A stretch of DNA of 64,000 bases from an uncultured bacterium. Lineage in GTDB: Bacteria > Cyanobacteriota > Vampirovibrionia > Gastranaerophilales > Gastranaerophilaceae. A model generated the notes under the pieces. That model did no database searches, was not told the DNA's origin, and saw only the letters and a program-made list of their open reading frames with translations. Where the stretch lies: the NCBI GenBank assembly GCA_947428835.1, contig CANENE010000002.1, forward strand, positions 16,901 to 80,900. Reading direction: 5' to 3'. Below are positions 27,322-63,748 of this stretch, piece after piece; the stretch's first letter is position 1; every line of letters begins with the position of its first letter. A program made the translations under genes and the position numbers.

Positions 27322-28377
27322 ATGGAAAATAATATAAAATACTTTAAAGGTTCTTTTATTTTTACTTTTGCTGCTCTTATTTTCGGGTTTTTGTGGGCTC
27401 ATCATATGAACCCCGGAAGTGAATTTAAAAGCATTTTTGTAGTTTTTGTTTTGAGTATTTTGGAAGTGAGCTTATCTTTTGATAATGCTGTAATAAATGC
27501 AGCCAAGCTTGAGAAAATGTCTGCACTTTGGCAGCATCGGTTTTTGACTTGGGGTATATGGATAGCTGTATTTGGAATGAGGTTTTTATTCCCTTTGCTT
27601 GTGGTTGCAGTTTTTTCAAAGTTATCAATAATAAAAGTCTTTGATATGGCGCTAAATAGCCCTAATGATTATGCTCATTATCTTCATATATCGCATCCAT
27701 TTGTAATAACCTTTGGTGCAAGTTTTTTAATAATGCTTTTTTTCAATTATTTCTTTAATAGCGAAAAAAAAGTTTTTTGGCTCAAACCAATTGAAAAAAG
27801 AATAGCATTATTAGGTAAAATTAAAGGGTTGAATACGATATTAACTCTTGCAATTTTATATTTTACATCTTCTTTTATAGGGCCAAATAGCAGATTAGAT
27901 ATGATTATATCGGGGCTTTGGGGTATCGGTATTTATCTTTTTATAGACGGGCTTTCTTCTTTTCTTGAAAAACAAGCTGAAAATACGATGACAAAACCTG
28001 CTGATTGCAGCCCTCATTTTAATCTTGCAAATCACTGCTTTATAAATTTTTTGTATTTAGAATTGATAGATGCATCTTTTTCGCTCGACGGGGTGCTTGG
28101 AGCTTTTGCTTTAAGCAAGGATATTTTAATAATTGCTATCGGTCTTTCAATCGGGGCTATGTTTGTCAGGTCTTTAACCATTATGCTTGTTGAAAAAAAG
28201 ACCTTAAAAGAATATATCTATCTTGAACATGGCGCCCACTGGGCAATTGGGGCACTTGCTGTAATAATGTTTATTTCTTCCATAAAAGAAGTAAGTGAAA
28301 TTATAACAGGGTTGATTGGTGTAATTTTTATTTCAGCTTCTTTTGTATCTTCTCTAAAAGAAAAAGATAACGGTTAG
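27322..28377 (+). CDS. DUF475/TerC-like integral membrane protein
   Basis: Polytopic, with repeated SLSFDNAVINA / DASFSLDGVLGAFA motifs. Confidence 0.7.
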   Translation: MENNIKYFKGSFIFTFAALIFGFLWAHHMNPGSEFKSIFVVFVLSILEVSLSFDNAVINAAKLEKMSALWQHRFLTWGIWIAVFGMRFLFPLLVVAVFSKLSIIKVFDMALNSPNDYAHYLHISHPFVITFGASFLIMLFFNYFFNSEKKVFWLKPIEKRIALLGKIKGLNTILTLAILYFTSSFIGPNSRLDMIISGLWGIGIYLFIDGLSSFLEKQAENTMTKPADCSPHFNLANHCFINFLYLELIDASFSLDGVLGAFALSKDILIIAIGLSIGAMFVRSLTIMLVEKKTLKEYIYLEHGAHWAIGALAVIMFISSIKEVSEIITGLIGVIFISASFVSSLKEKDNG

Positions 28378-28673
28378 GCTTTATTTTTTATAACGCCGTA
28401 TTTTTCCATTACTTCTACAATTTTTTGTTCAAGGTTGTCGTTTTCCGTTGGTTTTTTTGTGCTTTGATTAAACATCTCTCCTTTTCCTGATACAAGCCAA
28501 TTTAGATTTGCATTAACTTTTTTGTCCAACTGAACAAAAAGATTTAAAGAAGGAGCTCTTCTATTTTGTTCATAATTAGTCAAAGTGTTTGCTGACATCT
28601 CTAACCTATCGGCAAATTTAGAGACTGATAAACCTAATTCTATTCGAAGCTTTTTTAAATTTTGCGCAAACAT
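28374..28673 (-). CDS. XRE-family HTH regulator, long class (cassette 1)
   Basis: MFAQNLKKLRIELGLSVSKFADRLEMSANTLTNYEQNRRAPS HTH, then the NLNWLVSGKGEMF motif shared with the 57674, 63452 and 50163 genes. Divergent from the pilin-like gene. Confidence 0.85.
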   Translation of the reverse strand: MFAQNLKKLRIELGLSVSKFADRLEMSANTLTNYEQNRRAPSLNLFVQLDKKVNANLNWLVSGKGEMFNQSTKKPTENDNLEQKIVEVMEKYGVIKNKA

Positions 28674-28706
28674 TTTTTGCCCTTGACTGTAAAATTTTAT
28701 TAATTA

Positions 28707-28747
28707 TGTTCATTTGAACTTGACAATTTTGTTCATTTGACTATAAT
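28707..28747 (+). promoter_or_regulatory. Candidate promoter (TTGACA-16-TATAAT) with two direct operator-like repeats TGTTCATTTGA
   Basis: TTGACA at 28720-28725 and TATAAT at 28742-28747. Repeats at 28707-28717 and 28730-28740, the second lying inside the spacer. Confidence 0.5.
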
Positions 28748-28806
28748 TAGAATAAGAATAGTTTCTTTTCTATCACTATTCTATAACTATAACATATAAA
28801 CCATAA

Positions 28807-28864
28807 AATTTGGCAAAATTTGCCTCATTTTTTGTACACAAAATATTTTTTTAAGGAAAATAAC
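28807..28864 (+). promoter_or_regulatory. Conserved 5' leader of the long-class cassettes (two small hairpins plus AAGGAAAATAAC-ATG)
   Basis: GGCA-N5-TGCC (28812-28824) then TTTTGT-AC-ACAAAA (28830-28843). The same layout occurs at 58069-58137 and 63234-63317(-). Confidence 0.5.
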
Positions 28865-30109
28865 ATGAAAGATATAAACAAGCCTTTAAAGGCGCATTTG
28901 TTCTGCATTGATTTTTGGTTCAGGGAGGAAAAAGCCTTTTCTCTTATAGAACTGCTTGTGACACTCATTATAATGTCTTTGCTTATATCGGCCTTTATGC
29001 CTGTAGTAACTAAGAAATTAAAATCTTCTGCGACGGTATTGGGTGGTGGTTCGGGTGATGGAGGTTTTTCATCCGATATACTTTTTTCTAAAGAATGTGA
29101 AAAATTTTCAACAGAAGAATATAAATGCTTGATGTGTTCAACAACATCTTGCACATTGTGTTCAACTCAATTAAGTACAATAACAGGTTATTATGTAGAT
29201 CCGTCCGAAGGCTGTGAGCCTAAAAATTGTGCAGATAAGTTTGGAAGCAATTGTATGGATTGTAAAAAAGATTCTTGCAGCGCTTGTATTCCGGGAAGTG
29301 CTTTTGATGCTGAAACGAATAGTTGCAAAGAATGCGAAGCAGGATATTATTCTTTAGGAGGGTTGTCAAATTGTGAAAAATGTCCCGCAGGTTCGGTTTC
29401 AACAAAAGGTTCATCAGGCTGCGTATCTTGTCCTTCTGAATGTAAAAGCTGCACGACGGCGGAAATGTGTACCGAGTGCAATCAAGGCTATATATTAAAC
29501 TCGGGAAAATGTGTTTTAGGTTGCAATCCGCAAACGGTTACACTTTCAGGTACAAATACAAAAGTTACCAGATTCAATATGGGAGATGATCCAAACTGCC
29601 CAAGAGATGTTATACAATCTATGTCAGGTGTAATATTTGTACCTGTTGGTACAAACTGCCCGGATTCAAGAAATAATAAATTATGCTGCTGGTATGGCGT
29701 AACTGCTGTCGGCAATACCTGTACAAATAAGGGTGGTGTCTATTCTGGCTGTAATAGAACAGTATGTATGTGGCCTGCTGCAAAGAAAATATGCGAGTCT
29801 ATCGGTAAAGGTTGGAAACTTCCTGATACGGCAAATTCTATGGCAACCTGGTATCCTAATAATTCTACGGCATCAACAGGGCTTATGCTTTGTAGACATG
29901 CAGTGGGACGCGATGATTCCGATCTTTGTACGGATGCTATTACCAGCTGCCCGGACGCTGATGGCGGTTGTGCTCCATCGGGCGTATGGGCGAATGCTCT
30001 TAGTGCTAATCGTAACGGGCATGAATATAGCTGGATGTATTTCGGCTGGGATACCAGTAAATGGACCGGCATAACTCATGCATTTTCTGTGCGCTGCGTA
30101 AAAGAATAA
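28865..30109 (+). CDS. Prepilin-N-terminus protein with CXXC/furin-like Cys-rich repeats and one DUF1566/FISUMP-like module (P1, 414 aa)
   Basis: 24-aa leader then FSLIELLVTLIIMSLLISAF (class III signal type, Glu at +5). Contains CKECEAGYYSLGGLSNCEKCPAGSV...CVSCPSECKSC repeats. C-terminal CCWYG...YSGCNRTVCMW..AAKKIC...GWKLPD...FSVRCVKE. Confidence 0.85.
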   Translation: MKDINKPLKAHLFCIDFWFREEKAFSLIELLVTLIIMSLLISAFMPVVTKKLKSSATVLGGGSGDGGFSSDILFSKECEKFSTEEYKCLMCSTTSCTLCSTQLSTITGYYVDPSEGCEPKNCADKFGSNCMDCKKDSCSACIPGSAFDAETNSCKECEAGYYSLGGLSNCEKCPAGSVSTKGSSGCVSCPSECKSCTTAEMCTECNQGYILNSGKCVLGCNPQTVTLSGTNTKVTRFNMGDDPNCPRDVIQSMSGVIFVPVGTNCPDSRNNKLCCWYGVTAVGNTCTNKGGVYSGCNRTVCMWPAAKKICESIGKGWKLPDTANSMATWYPNNSTASTGLMLCRHAVGRDDSDLCTDAITSCPDADGGCAPSGVWANALSANRNGHEYSWMYFGWDTSKWTGITHAFSVRCVKE

Positions 30110-36162: not shown

Positions 36163-36242
36163 TTTTAAATTGTTAGCTATACTAGCATTAAATACAACTA
36201 GTCACACTAGCAAAATTATTCAAGGAAAGGACGGAAATTCTT

Positions 36243-49734: not shown

Positions 49735-50043
49735 TTATTTAGTCTTATTTTCAAGTTGTTTAATTGTTGATAATAGTTTTTTAATTTCTTTATCTTTTTG
49801 CTTAATGAGCATGGATTTATTTTTTATAATTTCTCCAAAAGAGTTTATAATAAATTCGTGTCTTGTGTGCGCATTATATGCCTTAAACAGCTCTGTCAGG
49901 CGATTTGAGACTGTAGAAGGGGAATAATTAAATTTCTTTGCAATTTGAGAAATTGTGAATCCTTGAAATACGCATTTGGCAATGAGTTTGCGCTCTTGAG
50001 CATACTCTTTTTTTAAGTTTTTTTTCATAATTTGGCAATCCAT
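49735..50043 (-). CDS. Small HTH protein (LuxR/sigma-70 region-4-like)
   Basis: GFTISQIAKKFNYSPSTVSNRLTELFKAY helix-turn-helix. Divergent from an XRE gene. Confidence 0.55.
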   Translation of the reverse strand: MDCQIMKKNLKKEYAQERKLIAKCVFQGFTISQIAKKFNYSPSTVSNRLTELFKAYNAHTRHEFIINSFGEIIKNKSMLIKQKDKEIKKLLSTIKQLENKTK

Positions 50044-50162
50044 AAAAATAATACTGTAAATAATTAATTTATTATGTTATAATGTAATTGACTTTATATA
50101 AGTAGAGTATATCAAGAATTGACTGATGTCAAGTATTTTTTGTACAATGTTAAGGTTTTGTA

Positions 50163-50459
50163 ATGAAAGCACTTGGAACAAGATTTAAATATGTAAGAAA
50201 GTTATTAAACAAGTCACAAGAAGAGCTTGCGACAGATTTTAGTGTGACAAAACAAGCAATTTCAAATATTGAAACTTGCAAATGTTTTCCAAGCATCCCT
50301 CTGTTATACAAGCTTGCAAACGATTATGATGTTAATCTTAACTATCTTGTATTAGGTAAAGGTGATATTTTCATAGTTAAAGAAAAGACTTACCAATCCC
50401 TTAGAGAGACTCTTATACAAGAGGTTGAGACGATTCTAAATGCAAGAGGTATAAAATAG
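50163..50459 (+). CDS. XRE-family HTH regulator, long-class relative with no adjacent pilin-like gene
   Basis: HTH (LLNKSQEELATDFSVTKQAISNIE) and an NLNYLVLGKGDIF motif related to the cassette regulators. Upstream TTGACT-18-TACAAT. Confidence 0.8.
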   Translation: MKALGTRFKYVRKLLNKSQEELATDFSVTKQAISNIETCKCFPSIPLLYKLANDYDVNLNYLVLGKGDIFIVKEKTYQSLRETLIQEVETILNARGIK

Positions 50460-54795: not shown

Positions 54796-54839
54796 TTACT
54801 GGAAAATATAACATATTTTTACTGGACATTTTCCAGTAA
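54796..54839. promoter_or_regulatory. Operator-like inverted repeat TTACTGGA-N5-TCCAGTAA plus an upstream half-site
   Basis: Inverted repeat at 54819-54839 and an extra TTACTGGAA at 54796-54804, in the XRE/P3 intergenic region. Confidence 0.4.
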
Positions 54840-57673: not shown

Positions 57674-57955
57674 CTACCCTATCAACCCTCGTTTTTTTAG
57701 AACAATATCAACTTTTCTGATAAATTCATCATCTATGTTATCTTTACTTACAAACATTTCGCCGTCGCCTGAGATAAACCAGTTTAAATTTACATTTAAA
57801 ATATTATACAATTGAATAGATAATTCTATGGATGGAACTCTTTTTTTACCTTCATAGCCCCAAAGTGTACTTGCAGGAATGCCAATCTTTTCTGCCATTT
57901 TTTCAACAGATAAATGCAGTTCTTTGCGAATTTTCTTTAGATTTTGAGCGTACAC
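57674..57955 (-). CDS. XRE-family HTH regulator, long class (cassette 4)
   Basis: MYAQNLKKIRKELHLSVEKMAEKIGIPASTLWGYE HTH and the NLNWFISGDGEMF motif. Divergent from P4. Confidence 0.85.
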   Translation of the reverse strand: MYAQNLKKIRKELHLSVEKMAEKIGIPASTLWGYEGKKRVPSIELSIQLYNILNVNLNWFISGDGEMFVSKDNIDDEFIRKVDIVLKKRGLIG

Positions 57956-57986
57956 AATTACCCCGAACGTATTAATTTTTGTAAAT

Positions 57987-58029
57987 TTCTATTCAATTGA
58001 GTTGACTATTCTGTTCAATAGAATATAAT
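57987..58029 (+). promoter_or_regulatory. Candidate promoter (TTGACT-16-TATAAT) with two operator-like repeats TTCT(A/G)TTCAAT(T/A)GA
   Basis: TTGACT at 58002-58007 and TATAAT at 58024-58029. Repeats at 57987-58000 and 58009-58022. Same geometry as cassette 1. Confidence 0.5.
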
Positions 58030-58068
58030 TAAAAGTAAGATAGATATTTCATAATAACTATATCACAG

Positions 58069-58137
58069 AATTGGTAAAAAATGGCATTTCTGCCTCACTT
58101 TTTTGTACACAAAAAAATAACTTTTAAGGAAAATAAC
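58069..58137 (+). promoter_or_regulatory. Conserved 5' leader (GGCA-N4-TGCC hairpin, TTTTTGT-AC-ACAAAAA hairpin, AAGGAAAATAAC-ATG)
   Basis: Alignable with 28807-28864 and 63234-63317(-). Confidence 0.5.
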
Positions 58138-61100
58138 ATGGAAAAATACAACAAGGCTCAAGGAGTTTATTTGCTGTGCTTGAAGGCTGATTTGAAATGC
58201 AAAAAAGCATTTTCACTTATAGAAATCCTGATAAGTTTAATCATCATCTCTCTTCTTATCGCGGCTTTTACTCCAATTATCACAAAGAAGCTTAAAGCAT
58301 CAGATATTTCAATAGGTTCTTTTGGAAGCGGAAGTAACATTAATATGACATTAGAAAGACAAGTCACAAAAGAAGATTGTGATAAATATGATGCAATTTT
58401 TATTCCTGCAGCAATGAACGGGGGCACAAGAAATCTTTGTGTTACAAGATATAATGTCGGAGATAATATAGATAATGGCGGAGTTCCAATTGCAAAAAGC
58501 GCTAAGACTCTTTCAGTCGGAAGTACATGTAATGACCATTTAAACTGCTGCTGGCAAGGAGCAACTGCAAACAGTTGTGCAAATGGTGATAGCAATAGTG
58601 ATTACTCGGGGTGTAATAGAACAGTCTGCGGATGGCAGGCAGCAAACGCCAGCTGTGCTGCGTATGCTCCAGATAATGAAAATGAAGGAAGCTGGAGACT
58701 TCCAACCAAAGAAGAAATATTAAACTGGCAGGACAACTTTTCTAATCTTCAAACAAACAAAGGTAAAGAAGGGCTTCAATTATGCAGTTATGAAGCAATT
58801 GATGGTTATACAAAATGCTCTGCAACAACAGCTTGCAATGATACAGGTCTTACCCATAACGGTTGTCATCCGCATCATATATTTTCAAACAATGCATTTG
58901 ACACATTTGCACTAAACCGAGCAAAATTTGACTATTCAAATAGTGAAAATATTACATATTCAGCAGGTGCAAGATGTGTATTGGATAAAATAGCTGTTGA
59001 TGTCTCTGAGCTTCCAAATGGTGGCGGGATAAAAGACCCGACAGTTGACCCTTTTTATGGAGAACCCAAAGATCAGGCAGATTGTGATAAAGTAGTTGCA
59101 ATATTCATAGATAAAAAAATGTCAGGAGCAAACAGAAACATCTGCGTTTCTAAATATAACGTAGGAGACGCTGGTCCCGATGGCTTTGGACCGCCTATAC
59201 CTGAAAGCTTCAATCAATATATAATGAATGCAGGCCAAACTTGTCCTTATAATGGCAATTGTTGTTGGAAAGGAAAGACTGCAAATGCTTGTGGTATTAC
59301 AGGCAATGCCGGAGCAAATTATAGTGGCTGTAACAGAACCGTATGCCAATATAATGCTGCAAACGCTGCCTGCAGACAATATAATGCTTTTGGAGCAACT
59401 GCCGTTGGAGCCTGGAGGTTGCCAACCGGTGCAGAATTTAGTGTATGGATGCAATACATGAAGGAAATAAGCAACAACAAAGGACCTGACGGTCTGCAGC
59501 TTTGTGTAAGTGGAACAAGCGCAGGATATGTACAATGTGCAAATATACAAAACTGCCCGGGCTTTTCAAGTGTTTCCGGATGGGGTGCTCATTGTACGCC
59601 ATTTAACAATTGGACTTCAACGATAATTTCAAAAACTTATCAAACCTATAATACTGCAGGAGGAGTATTTGGCGGAGGGAACGATATTCCTGCAAGTGCA
59701 AGATGTGTTTATGACGGCATTACAAAAGCCAATAATTATGAAGAAGATTTAAGCGACTATGACGATTCTAATGCTCCAAAAGATGAACCAAAGTCTCAAG
59801 CTGATTGCGACAAATTGACAGCTATTTTTATTCACAAAAAATATGCTGGAGGTTCAAGAAATCTTTGCATAAGTAAATATAACGTAGGGGATAGCGGACC
59901 AAGCGGCTCAGGGCCGACAATTCCATCAGCTTATAATACTTATATAATGAATGCAGCTCAAAGTTGCCCTTATAATGGTTATTGCTGCTGGAAAGGAAGG
60001 ACTGCAAATGCTTGTGGTATTACGGGTAATGTCGGAGCTAACTACAGCGGATGTAACAGAACCGTTTGTCAGTGGCACATTGCAAATGAAAGTTGTTTAT
60101 TGTGGACTGCGGGAGGAAAAACCCAAGCAAGAGCTTGGAGACTCCCAACACAGGCAGAATTTACAAATATTGTAAATTATATGAATATCATAAATAACGA
60201 TAGAGGTGCTGACGGTCTGCAGCTTTGTGTAAGTGGAACAAACGCAGGATATGTACAATGTGCAAATATACAAAACTGCCCGGGCTTTTCAAGTGTTTCC
60301 GGATGGGGTGCTCATTGTACGCCATTTAACAATTGGACTTCAACGACGGGTTTAACTTATGATGCTGCCGGTAATGCATATAGCGGGGGCGCAGATATTC
60401 CTGCAAGTGCAAGGTGCGTGTATGATGGAACCATAAATAAACCAAGCGATATAGGAGACTATGATGAAAGTAATGCGCCCGATGATGAACCAAAAAGCCA
60501 AGCAGATTGTGATAAATTAACCGCAATATTTGTACACAAAAAATACTCAGGTGACCCAAGAAATATTTGTATTTCAAAATATAACGTAGGAGATACCGGT
60601 CCAAGCGGTTCAGGACCCCAAATTCCTACTCAATATGCGCAGTATACAATTAATGCTGCTCAAGCTTGCGGTAAATCCGGCTATTGTTGTTGGAAAGGTA
60701 AAACCGCTAATTCTTGCGGAATAGTAGGAAATGCCGGAGCTGATTATTCGGGTTGTAACAGAACAGTATGCCAATGGTATGTTTCTGATGCTGCCTGCAA
60801 AGAATATACTGCAGGTGGAAAAACCCAAGCCGGTTATTGGAGACTACCTACCCAGGTTGAGTTTTCAAGCATGTTCCAATATATGGGAGAAATTAACAAT
60901 AATAGAGGTAAAAACGGAATTCAATTGTGCACCTCAGGAACTAATCCGGGTTTTGTACAATGTGCAAATATACAAAACTGCCCGGGCTTTTCAAGTGTTT
61001 CCGGATGGGGTGCTCATTGTACGCCATTTAACAATTGGACTTCAACATTGGGTATAACCTACAATTCCATTGGAAATACATTTAGCGGGGGCGCAGATAT

Positions 61101-61685: not shown

Positions 61686-63233
61686 TTATTTTGGAATTTT
61701 ATCTGTAACGCATCTTGCGGAAGTCCCTTCATGTCGTGGCCTTGCTATGACGGCTTGAAAAATATATTTATATGTTATATAAGAAACACCATTTTGCCCC
61801 CATAGTGCAATTGGAATGCAGCCCGTACCTGCTGCACTTGTGCACGCTGTTGATGAATAGCAATTAACAGCCCCGCCATTTATTCCGCCTTCATTGCAAA
61901 GTTGTAAACCTGCAGAACCCTTGTTTAGTGTTATAGTACTCAAATTTTTGCTCCATCCAATCAATTCCTCTTCTGTAGGAAGTCTCCAAAGTCCTTTTAT
62001 ATCGTCAGGTGCATAGCTATTGCAAGAAATGTCACTTGCCGCCCAGTTACATAGAGTTCTATTGCAGCCGCTATATGTGCTATTGCCGTTGCCTCCTGCG
62101 GTATCGCAATTGCTTGTTGTTTTGCCTTGCCAGCAGCAATACTTACTTGCGCAAGTGCCCCCTGTAATTTGAGTCACATTTACAATAGGGTCTGTATAAA
62201 TATCGCCGATATTGTATTTTGTAGCACAAACGCCGGTTTTGCCGCCATTCATATTCTTTGGAATAAAAAGTGCATTATATTTATCGCAATCTTCTTGGCT
62301 CTTTGGTTCTTTATAGTTAAATCCGTCATCGGCATCTTCTTCTTTTTTTGCATTTTCAATTACTGTATCTAATACGCATCTTGCACTTTGTGCATTAGTT
62401 GGCTCATATTCTCTGTAGGAATCAAATATTCCTTCGTGCAGATATTTATCCCAATACATGTTTGTATTTGTACCTGTTTCTGTCAACGACCAGTTATGAT
62501 ATGGCCAGCATGCATTATCAAATGAACCCGGGCACAATTTAGCAAAAGATACTCCGGGATTGGTATGTGTTATGCACACCACGGATCCGTAATTTTTGGC
62601 GCTATCGCACAGTTGCAAGCCGTCATAGCCTTTATTAAACTGTAAGTTATTTAAATGCTTTGCCCATCCGCTCATTTCAATATAAGTTGGAAGTCTCCAC
62701 TTGCCCCCTAGTGCCTTGGGGGAATATTCTTTGCAGCTCAAATTTGCAGCTTCCCACTGACACATTGTTCTGTAGCAGCCGCTGTAGTCTGTATTTCCGT
62801 TGCCTGTCGTGCCACAATAGCCGGAGGGTGATGTTTGCCCCTGCCAGCAGCAGAGGCTTTCATTTCCTTTAGTGCAGTTACTGCCTGCAGGAACCGTTTC
62901 TACGCTTTTAGATATAGTGATACCATTATCTCCCACATTATATTTAGTGACGCAAATATCATTAATGCCGTCATTCATTTCTTTTGGAATAAATAAGGCG
63001 TTAACTTTTTGGCAATCTTCTTTCGTCGGGGGTCTTGCGGCAGTCTCTGTGCTGCTTTCTTCCTTTTTGCCACTAAAGCTTCCAACCGTAATGTCTGATG
63101 CTTTGAGTTTTTTGGTGATAATTGGTGCGAAAGCTCCAATTAAAAGAGACATTATAATAAGACTTGTAAGAAGCTCAATAAGGCTAAAAGCGCATCGAAA
63201 TTGAGCCTTTTGAGGCTTTGGTTTTTTCTCCAT
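61686..63233 (-). CDS. Prepilin-N-terminus protein with two DUF1566/FISUMP-like Cys-rich modules (P5, 515 aa)
   Basis: 15-aa leader then FSLIELLTSLIIMSLLIGAFAPIITKKLKAS. Contains CCWQGQTS, YSGCYRTMCQWEAANLSCKEY, KWRLPT, GLQLC and SARCVLD. Module 2 ends SARCVTD. Confidence 0.85.
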   Translation of the reverse strand: MEKKPKPQKAQFRCAFSLIELLTSLIIMSLLIGAFAPIITKKLKASDITVGSFSGKKEESSTETAARPPTKEDCQKVNALFIPKEMNDGINDICVTKYNVGDNGITISKSVETVPAGSNCTKGNESLCCWQGQTSPSGYCGTTGNGNTDYSGCYRTMCQWEAANLSCKEYSPKALGGKWRLPTYIEMSGWAKHLNNLQFNKGYDGLQLCDSAKNYGSVVCITHTNPGVSFAKLCPGSFDNACWPYHNWSLTETGTNTNMYWDKYLHEGIFDSYREYEPTNAQSARCVLDTVIENAKKEEDADDGFNYKEPKSQEDCDKYNALFIPKNMNGGKTGVCATKYNIGDIYTDPIVNVTQITGGTCASKYCCWQGKTTSNCDTAGGNGNSTYSGCNRTLCNWAASDISCNSYAPDDIKGLWRLPTEEELIGWSKNLSTITLNKGSAGLQLCNEGGINGGAVNCYSSTACTSAAGTGCIPIALWGQNGVSYITYKYIFQAVIARPRHEGTSARCVTDKIPK

Positions 63234-63317
63234 GTTATTTTCCTTTAGATGTGTGTAAATTTTTTTGTATATATTTGTAATTTATGCATAAAAAATGAGG
63301 CATAATATGCCAAATTT
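63234..63317 (-). promoter_or_regulatory. Conserved 5' leader of P5 (GGCAT-N3-ATGCC hairpin, TTTATG/CATAAA palindrome, AAGGAAAATAAC-ATG)
   Basis: Minus strand reads AAATTTGGCATATTATGCCTCATTTTTTATGCATAAA...AAGGAAAATAACATG. Hairpin positions are conserved, but the second stem has a different sequence. Confidence 0.45.
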
Positions 63318-63338
63318 AAATTATATGGTATAGTATAA

Positions 63339-63416
63339 ATACAATTGTATTTATTTTATAAACTACATTACACTTATTATACATACAATCGTATGTAATA
63401 TGCAAGTACAATTGTA
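63339..63416. promoter_or_regulatory. Three operator-like palindromes (ATACAATTGTAT, CATACAATCGTATG, TACAATTGTA)
   Basis: Located at 63339-63350, 63382-63395 and 63407-63416 in the P5/XRE intergenic region. Confidence 0.45.
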
Positions 63417-63451
63417 TTATTGTAACAAAAATTAATACAAATAGAGTAATA

Positions 63452-63748
63452 ATGCTAGGTAAAAATCTTAGAAAAATCAGGGAAGAACTTAATTTGTCGG
63501 TTGCGGGGCTGGCAGAAAGACTGGATATGTCCCCCAATACACTTTCAGCTTATGAAAGAAATTTAAGAATGCCTTCGATGGAGCTTGCCATACAATTGTA
63601 TGCAAAATTAAATGTTAATACAAACTGGTTTGTATCAGGCAAAGGAAAGATGTTTAATGATGATATTGTGCCTGAATTTGAGCAAATCAAAGGCAAGCTT
63701 CTTGATGAAGTTAAAAAGCTTTTGAAAGATGAAGGACTAATCAAATAA
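63452..63748 (+). CDS. XRE-family HTH regulator, long class (cassette 5)
   Basis: MLGKNLRKIREELNLSVAGLAERLDMSPNTLSAYE HTH and the NTNWFVSGKGKMF motif. Divergent from P5. Confidence 0.85.
   Translation: MLGKNLRKIREELNLSVAGLAERLDMSPNTLSAYERNLRMPSMELAIQLYAKLNVNTNWFVSGKGKMFNDDIVPEFEQIKGKLLDEVKKLLKDEGLIK

Follow-up and report, generated by a model that had tools for sequence, protein, structure and literature searches.

In plasmid pCF10 of Enterococcus faecalis, interference between the promoters PQ and PX and termination in the leader (at IRS1) together yield switch-like behaviour (PMC3181467). In the pR/pL pair of coliphage 186, repression of the strong promoter relieves interference on the CI promoter (PMC3675496). 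Here, we describe a related arrangement in a 64,000-nucleotide stretch (the window) of a human-gut Candidatus Gastranaerophilales genome, in which genes for small XRE-type repressors stand divergently beside cargo genes encoding pilin-like proteins (P genes), three of which are preceded by a conserved leader. The cassettes with this leader belong to one class, class A, and their module is most likely a convergent-promoter repressor switch, a variant of the known kind. In our judgement, class-A cassettes are probably face-to-face promoter switches with a terminator-like hairpin in the leader, and not carriers of a plain RNA element.

As in prgQ/prgX of pCF10, an XRE-type helix-turn-helix (HTH) repressor would shut a strong promoter, with its own promoter lying downstream and facing it, and a leader terminator, putative here, is placed past this antisense promoter and before the downstream genes, which in pCF10 include a surface adhesin. 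Unlike in pCF10, the predicted overlap is ~6–40 nt rather than 223 nt, there is no sign here of an Anti-Q-like countertranscript, a peptide pheromone or a peptide-binding domain, the repressors are of 93–114 residues, and the module is chromosomal, present in ~16 copies, with a much weaker hairpin. As in 186 (and P2), a CI-type repressor gene would be expressed from a weaker promoter converging on the strong promoter that it shuts off, and class-A XRE proteins pass the Pfam Phage_CI_repr cut-off. However, 186 CI is larger and acts through a 14-mer wheel, flanking sites and looping, nothing of which kind is seen here, and no 186 CI chain is present among the 60 listed of 73 PDB matches. The cargo also differs, being a pilin-like, ribbon-helix-helix (RHH)-like or LuxR-like gene rather than a lytic operon, with a terminator-like hairpin after.

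Uncultured Gastranaerophilales are common in the human gut, and the genome from which the window derives (1.8 Mb, 32.5% G+C) has close copies in human-gut assemblies. It contains ~41 XRE plus pilin-like cassettes, and all but one of the ~41 P paralogs stand opposite a small HTH or XRE-type gene. Five such divergent pairs are found by Pfam in the window, their P proteins combining N_methyl and Lcl_C (DUF1566) domains. A preliminary description of the window had divided these five into cassettes with long XRE proteins and long prepilin leaders (1, 4 and 5) and cassettes with short ones (2 and 3). Its measurements are accurate: the XRE proteins of cassettes 1, 4 and 5 have 99, 93 and 98 residues and share the motif N(L/T)NW(L/F)(V/I)SG.G.MF, and the prepilin leaders have 24, 24 and 15 residues in these cassettes and 4 and 8 in the other two. 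In the window, only the 99-, 93- and 98-residue XRE proteins pass the Phage_CI_repr cut-off, the 71- and 72-residue proteins falling below it. Genome-wide, at least five XRE types can be recognised, so the division into long and short XRE proteins does not describe the family. Class A is CI-like, with the motif N(L/I)NW/Y..G.G..F and a C-terminal helix, and stands beside 15 P genes, with one further orphan; the other types measure 70–74, 104–119, 87–94 (with an FSLI(D/E) end) and 71–85 residues, non-A lengths spanning 70 to 119 residues and more. The solved structures nearest to class-A XRE proteins are those of ImmR, SinR and the 434 and P22 repressors, with PrgX also among the profile matches. 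Class-A intergenic gaps are longer than those of other cassettes (~215 bp vs ~135 bp, p = 5e-5). The proposed tracking of XRE class by prepilin-leader length survives as a difference in medians (17 residues in class A vs 10 in the rest, p = 0.016) with loose separation, since one class-A cassette has a leader of 5 residues and the relatives L022 and L023 have leaders of 4–5. Members are not independent in any of the counts over paralogs and relatives given here.

In cassette 1, a gap of 191 bp separates the XRE gene (28374–28673, minus strand) from P1 (28865–30109), with the following features:

28374–28673, minus strand: class-A XRE repressor gene, 99 residues (Pfam HTH_19, HTH_3 and Phage_CI_repr, 32 bits against a 22-bit cut-off)
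28708–28719 and 28731–28741: two copies of a putative cassette-specific operator, GTTCATTTGA(A)C, placed on both sides of the -35 hexamer and within the P1 promoter spacer, as read from the sequence
28720–28747, plus strand: predicted P1 cargo promoter, TTGACA-16-TATAAT, 12/12 matches, predicted transcription start near 28754
28786–28796, minus strand: box TATGTTATAGT (TRTGnTATAGT), predicted extended -10 element directed toward the XRE gene, predicted transcription start near 28779
28811–28816, minus strand: TTGCCA, -35-like hexamer of the putative XRE promoter (spacer 19), the reverse complement of the left arm of hairpin 1
28812–28824, plus strand: hairpin 1, GGCAAAATTTGCC, GGCAA-AAT-TTGCC, five pairs (three G-C) preceded by an A-run, flagged terminator-like on both strands
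28828–28833, plus strand: T6 run, 3 nt past hairpin 1
28830–28843, plus strand: palindrome TTTTGTACACAAAA ('hairpin 2'), its 3' half ACACAAAA (28836–28843) being a copy of the CA box
28852–28867, plus strand: Shine-Dalgarno (SD) box TAAGGAAAATAAC and ATG, not class-specific

The predicted XRE start (~28779) lies ~25 bp beyond the predicted P1 start (~28754). All three leaders, those of P1, P4 and P5, are found where the preliminary description had placed them, each with the GGCA/TGCC hairpin 1 and a T6 run after it.

The resemblance of the leaders goes beyond chance. When a covariance model built from the leader element (R1) was run on the genome, seven leaders matched with E from 5e-10 to 4e-7 and another three less well; these ten are without exception of class A, and none of the 26 other P genes was matched (Fisher p = 2.7e-6, a value that overstates the case because the paralogs are not independent). 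Alignment of the seven close leaders from XRE start to P gene revealed conserved blocks at TTTTGTAAAT close to where the XRE gene starts, at both hexamers (-35 and -10), at the box ((T)AACTATA-N-CAYATAA), in the hairpin-1 region (TTTGGCA...TGCCT.ATTTTTT) and at the SD box. In these seven, the leader blocks are as invariant as the -35/-10 hexamers, whereas the operators and the intervening sequence have diverged. The four closest class-A XRE proteins are only 44–47% identical, so that retention of the blocks indicates selection rather than recent copying. These data support a leader under constraint and restricted to the subclass with long, CI-like XRE proteins. The class specificity noted earlier applies to the element including hairpin 1, whose model matches all lie in class A, but not to hairpin 2 and the SD box, since the SD box and one half of hairpin 2 occur in other classes too.

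Class-A XRE genes are present in 29 of 151 family genomes sampled, with 16 copies here against 1–3 in the other carriers, and this is a lineage-specific expansion of the module. Such an expansion (16 copies vs 0–3 across other family genomes) could by itself leave similar leaders as functionless relics of recent paralogy, and the first leader model matched almost nothing in 150 relatives. We nevertheless regard a relic as very improbable: between XRE proteins of the divergence given above the box and hairpin 1 are near-invariant while the flanks have diverged, and the box and the hairpin recur before other cargo genes in six or more further genera of the family sampled.

Class-A cassettes also conserve a longer block by the XRE start, GTATTAA-N-TTTTGTAAAT (28685–28705, 57978–57998 and, on the minus strand, 63420–63440), which might serve the cargo promoter as an UP-like element or belong to the long XRE 5' untranslated region (UTR).

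The strongest conserved signal is the box, ACTATA-N-CAYA, which lies just upstream of hairpin 1 and was absent from the preliminary description. Read on the XRE strand, it becomes TRTG-N-TATAGT, with its invariant positions matching the extended -10 consensus and its sole variable base matching the "n" of that consensus. Extended -10 elements have TG at -15/-14 (TRTGn in Gram-positive bacteria), one base before a TAnnnT near TATAAT, and transcription starts ~7 nt downstream; the preference of Melainabacteria may differ. Like such promoters, the box fits every conserved position and points at a gene without a better candidate. Of the 21 occurrences of TRTGnTATAGT in the genome (3.6 Mb counting both strands), eight fall in class-A leaders, namely those of P1, P4 and P5 and five others, and the box is the top XRE-strand promoter candidate in 9/15 class-A cassettes, 74–124 nt before the XRE ATG. 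An opposite-strand TGnTAnnnT with at least 4/6 matches, located 19–56 bp past the cargo -10, is found in 42/62 class-A modules (the class-A count being our reading of the list) compared to 3/26 other cassettes, all three of them poor. The box is kept whatever the cargo, be it pilin-like, RHH-like, LuxR-like or a small helical protein, and LuxR-cargo modules carry exact TGTTATAAT or TGCTATAAT. Additionally, the left arm of hairpin 1 reads TTGCC(A/G) on the XRE strand, which is -35-like, and six modules of other genera (L090, L102, L161, L168, L074 and L020) have TTGCCG, TTGTCG or TTGCCC at a 17-bp spacer. The box most likely reads better as DNA, namely as an extended -10 element on the opposite strand driving the XRE gene, a reading that also accounts for the -35-like left arm of hairpin 1.

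The layout recurs in cassettes 4 and 5:

57674–57955, minus strand: class-A XRE gene of cassette 4, 93 residues (Pfam)
58002–58029, plus strand: predicted P4 cargo promoter, TTGACT-16-TATAAT
58057–58067, minus strand: P4 box TGTGATATAGT, predicted extended -10 element directed toward the XRE gene
58083–58104, plus strand: P4 hairpin 1, GGCATTTCTGCC, GGCA-TTTC-TGCC, four pairs (58083–58094), then TCAC and T6 (58099–58104)
58099–58116, plus strand: P4 palindrome T6GTACACA6, with the SD box TAAGGAAAATAAC before the ATG (58125–58140)
63452–63748, plus strand: class-A XRE gene of cassette 5, 98 residues (Pfam)
63376–63405, minus strand: predicted P5 cargo promoter, TTGCAT-18-TATAAT
63307–63334, plus strand: candidate XRE promoter of cassette 5, ATGCCA-16-TATAGT, with TG before the -10 (box TATGGTATAGT, 63324–63334)
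63290–63311, minus strand: P5 hairpin 1, GGCATATTATGCC, GGCAT-ATT-ATGCC (63311–63299), then TCA and T6 (63295–63290)
63292–63281, minus strand: P5 palindrome TTTATGCATAAA, with the SD box AAAGGAAAATAAC before the ATG

The positions of the extended -10 elements suggest that the cassette classes differ in promoter topology: the two promoters would face each other in class-A cassettes, and would stand back-to-back in cassettes 2 and 3. The elements of these two cassettes, and of an orphan class-A module in the window, are:

36179–36187, minus strand: predicted extended -10 element TGCTAGTAT of cassette 2 (71-residue XRE), 16 nt before the XRE start, back-to-back
54805–54813, minus strand: predicted extended -10 element TGTTATATT of cassette 3 (72-residue XRE), 18 nt before the XRE start, back-to-back
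50163–50459, plus strand: orphan class-A XRE gene, facing a LuxR-like HTH gene (49735–50043, minus strand)
50073–50083, plus strand: box TATGTTATAAT of the orphan module, a perfect extended -10 match, with no hairpin 1 after it

The preliminary description had read the leader as a possible post-transcriptional control element. In its full form, this would have the whole leader act as RNA, a cis-regulatory 5' UTR whose box and hairpin 1 bind a protein or small RNA or attenuate transcription, the promoter match being coincidental. The conserved blocks do fall in the predicted 5' UTR, but the conservation pattern of the box follows TRTGnTATAAT base for base, modules lacking a hairpin retain the box, and no complementary partner of the box is seen in the genome, where a search for antisense partners gave no enrichment. 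A NusB/NusE boxA or nut-like site was considered and rejected; the box resembles CUUUAACA, but the best rRNA-leader boxA matches, from two family genomes, read GAAC(T/A)TTGAAAACAG. A specialised NusG of the RfaH, LoaP or UpxY type was likewise rejected, with one NusG locus only in a genome that is 97.7% complete.

For hairpin 1, the evidence is mixed. The stem has 4–5 pairs (four in P4; five in the others, three of them G-C), and its loop and stem lengths vary, as they may in an RNA. Double compensatory changes are present in P5 (pair 5, A-U to U-A) and in C12 (pair 2, G-C to A-U), together with several sense-strand G-U wobbles. Over 17 aligned sequences, the inner helix is 89% paired and mostly invariant, with two of its six pairs never varying, and the covariation score was not convincingly above that of shuffled alignments (0.157 vs 0.131 +/- 0.019; 40/500 shuffles as high). 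Folding z-scores are modest, from -0.6 to -2.6: the P1 element folds at -8 kcal/mol (z = -2.1), its stem lengthened through pairs between the A-run and the U-run, and the minimum-free-energy fold of P4 leaves hairpin 1 unused. A known RNA family was not found, Rfam giving no match at gathering score in the window and, in a search of the leader up to E 10, only chance-level matches (E >= 2). A conserved upstream open reading frame was also rejected, as start codons within hairpin 1 lead into differing frames with differing stops in P1, P4, P5 and C1-136, and RHH-type leaders have no ATG. Weighing these points, we consider it unlikely that the leader as a whole works as RNA.

What remains of that proposal is a possible attenuator. 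Like intrinsic terminators and attenuators, hairpin 1 has an A-run, a G+C-cored stem and a T-run; unlike them, it has a stem of 4–5 pairs and a 3-nt gap before the T-run, and no alternative antiterminator pairing and no regulator were identified. A second model, R2, built from hairpin 1, also matches ordinary 3'-end terminators in related genomes, such as AAAGAGGCAAAATTTGCCTCTTTTTTT, indicating that hairpin 1, taken together with its A- and T-runs, is built like the clade's bidirectional terminators but on a far shorter stem, which makes an attenuator role reasonable. Consistent with this, a terminator-like site is found in 7/15 class-A leaders compared to 1/26 others. With less confidence than we place in the promoter reading of the box, we propose that hairpin 1 may be a weak attenuator or insulator in an IRS1-like position.

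The conservation of hairpin 1 could also reflect a duplex-DNA operator for a common dimeric regulator, centred ~36–41 bp upstream of the XRE start and overlapping the -35, for which the LuxR-like protein encoded at 49735–50043 would be a candidate. Its position relative to the XRE promoter fits, and it is chiefly the sequence that is conserved, a 13-bp GGCAA-N3-TTGCC core recurring in 13 of the 18 leaders inspected by eye (A4 plus L093). Yet the distance from GGCA to TGCC varies from 4 to 9 nt, for total lengths of 12, 13, 14 or 17 bp, a variation easier to reconcile with a hairpin than with a rigid operator on duplex DNA. Hairpins of unrelated sequence occupy the same position in L022, L023, L165, C14, C17 and C3-39845, the first three being relatives in which they substitute for the palindrome; this also counts in favour of a terminator-like hairpin. 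A class-A XRE gene facing the 102-residue LuxR-like HTH gene is found in 5/5 genomes searched in the genus (this one and four others), which makes the LuxR-like protein a candidate master regulator; this module is itself without the palindrome. The RHH-like cargo protein has no homolog in this genome that might serve as a Cro-like factor, and an RHH-like master regulator acting in trans was rejected on the same ground. Overall, a duplex operator at hairpin 1 appears quite unlikely. A sigma-54 promoter (TGGCAC-N5-TTGC) within hairpin 1 was rejected as well, as the gap between TGGCA and TTGC ranges from 4 to 8 nt instead of a fixed 6 and the genome has no rpoN (Sigma54_DBD unmatched).

The module is portable between cargo genes. 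Besides pilin-like genes, class-A cargo includes a LuxR-like HTH gene (L078, L080–L082; window 49735–50459), a small helical protein and an RHH-like protein, and most class-A modules of relatives have a hairpin after the box. A metagenome scan added ~five useful relatives. In L090 and L091, from human-gut contigs, the XRE protein is 87% identical to that of cassette 1 over residues 1–69 and the operators are the same, with RHH-like cargo in place of the pilin-like gene. Site-specific recombination at the hairpin was rejected as an explanation, for the homology between P1 and L090, with shared XRE and operators and different cargo, breaks near the cargo transcription start and not at the hairpin. 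The RHH-cargo form (L090, L091, L102, L159–L161, L168/L169 and L024) is highly conserved over several genera, suggesting a mobile or phage-derived origin. Its hairpin has two tiers of stem, ACACGAAAA-CGGCAAA...TTTGCCG-..TTTTCGTGT, and can be aligned with this genome's leaders, whose T-run is the counterpart of the 3' arm of the outer stem. Matching R2 to the loci of distant XRE homologs in Firmicutes, Flavobacterium and other groups found no leader. In L019 and L158 (G150:C3), a G+C-rich, repeat-like or miniature inverted-repeat transposable element (MITE)-like insert of ~100 bp lies between the cargo promoter and the box.

For class A, the motifs, their positions, their class restriction and their conservation over all cargo types are observed, and from them a switch mechanism can be proposed. 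The near-consensus cargo promoter would carry two palindromic operators for its own CI-like XRE repressor; the palindromes around the cargo -35 and spacer are cassette-specific and unchanged where the XRE protein is 87% identical over residues 1–69 (L090), and we treat them as putative operators. The XRE gene would be transcribed from the TRTGnTATAGT box together with the TTGCC(A/G) -35-like hexamer, on the opposite strand, 19–56 bp past the cargo -10. From the motif positions, the predicted start sites would be ~6–40 bp apart and convergent, so that the two promoters could not both be freely occupied by two polymerases at once. The strong cargo promoter would then suppress the XRE promoter, and XRE bound to the operators would repress the cargo and relieve its own promoter, which would make the cassette bistable. 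Past the XRE promoter, cargo transcripts would reach hairpin 1, a putative weak intrinsic terminator before the pilin-like gene.

Several observations weigh against this proposal. Hairpin 1 is weak, with 4–5 pairs compared to the 9–10 pairs (4–5 G-C) of the terminators after P1, P4 and P5; its T-run, T6–T7 in 7/7 close leaders, begins 1–3 nt past the stem (3 nt in P1 and P5); and the covariation score given above is not significant. LuxR-cargo modules keep the box and have no hairpin. The -35 spacer is 16–19 bp in this genome and often 19, and the XRE promoter would therefore depend on its extended -10 element, while a clean TGnTAnnnT is missing from about one third of class-A modules, with TG shifted out of register by one base in the ACTATACTACAAAA group. 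Finally, we infer interference and bistability from geometry alone.

Downstream of hairpin 1, the conserved signals are of a more general kind. The palindromes described as hairpin 2 are present in P1, P4 and P5 but are not conserved beyond P1 and P4, and only P4 forms hairpin 2 in its minimum-free-energy fold. In P1 and P4, the 3' half of the palindrome is an A(C/T)ACAAAA box (the CA box) common to P genes irrespective of XRE class; 17/41 P genes have it no more than 70 nt from the ATG, compared to 4.5% of random 70-nt windows. The SD box, too, had been taken as a feature of the subclass and is shared with P genes of other classes, so that neither it nor the half-palindrome marks a class. The CA box (28836–28843 and 58108–58115 in the window) stands 16–45 nt before the ATG, often with CTAA ahead, and may be a translation or stability signal. 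The SD-to-ATG spacer, AAAATAACATG, is conserved across P genes of several classes (28852–28867, 58125–58140 and 63231–63246; C13, C15, C12 and C19), and its opposite strand carries TGTTATTTT at the start codon, a weak motif of extended -10 type.

Among the other XRE types, that of 87–94 residues ends in ...LP..FSLI(D/E), like the FSLIEL start of the partner mature pilin-like proteins. The P genes of this genome paired with XRE proteins ending in FSLI(D/E) are C7+80019, C9-87518, C12-33504, C13-23472 and C23+8995.

The class-A leaders also carry a caution for annotation, as a conserved "5' leader" can be the promoter of a neighbouring gene on the other strand. It is possible, if doubtful, that each of the ~16 class-A cassettes is a self-contained bistable switch, the genome thereby making many independent heritable ON/OFF choices among pilin-like proteins with no DNA rearrangement, with the shared hairpin as the handle of one common factor. 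If the convergent-promoter reading is true, this genome would have multiplied a phage- or plasmid-type convergent switch and put a large family of pilin-like, lectin-domain proteins under its control. This would amount to a compact, reusable design, with a repressor, two facing promoters and a leader terminator in ~200 bp, and would provide phase-variable surface display without invertases or repeats.

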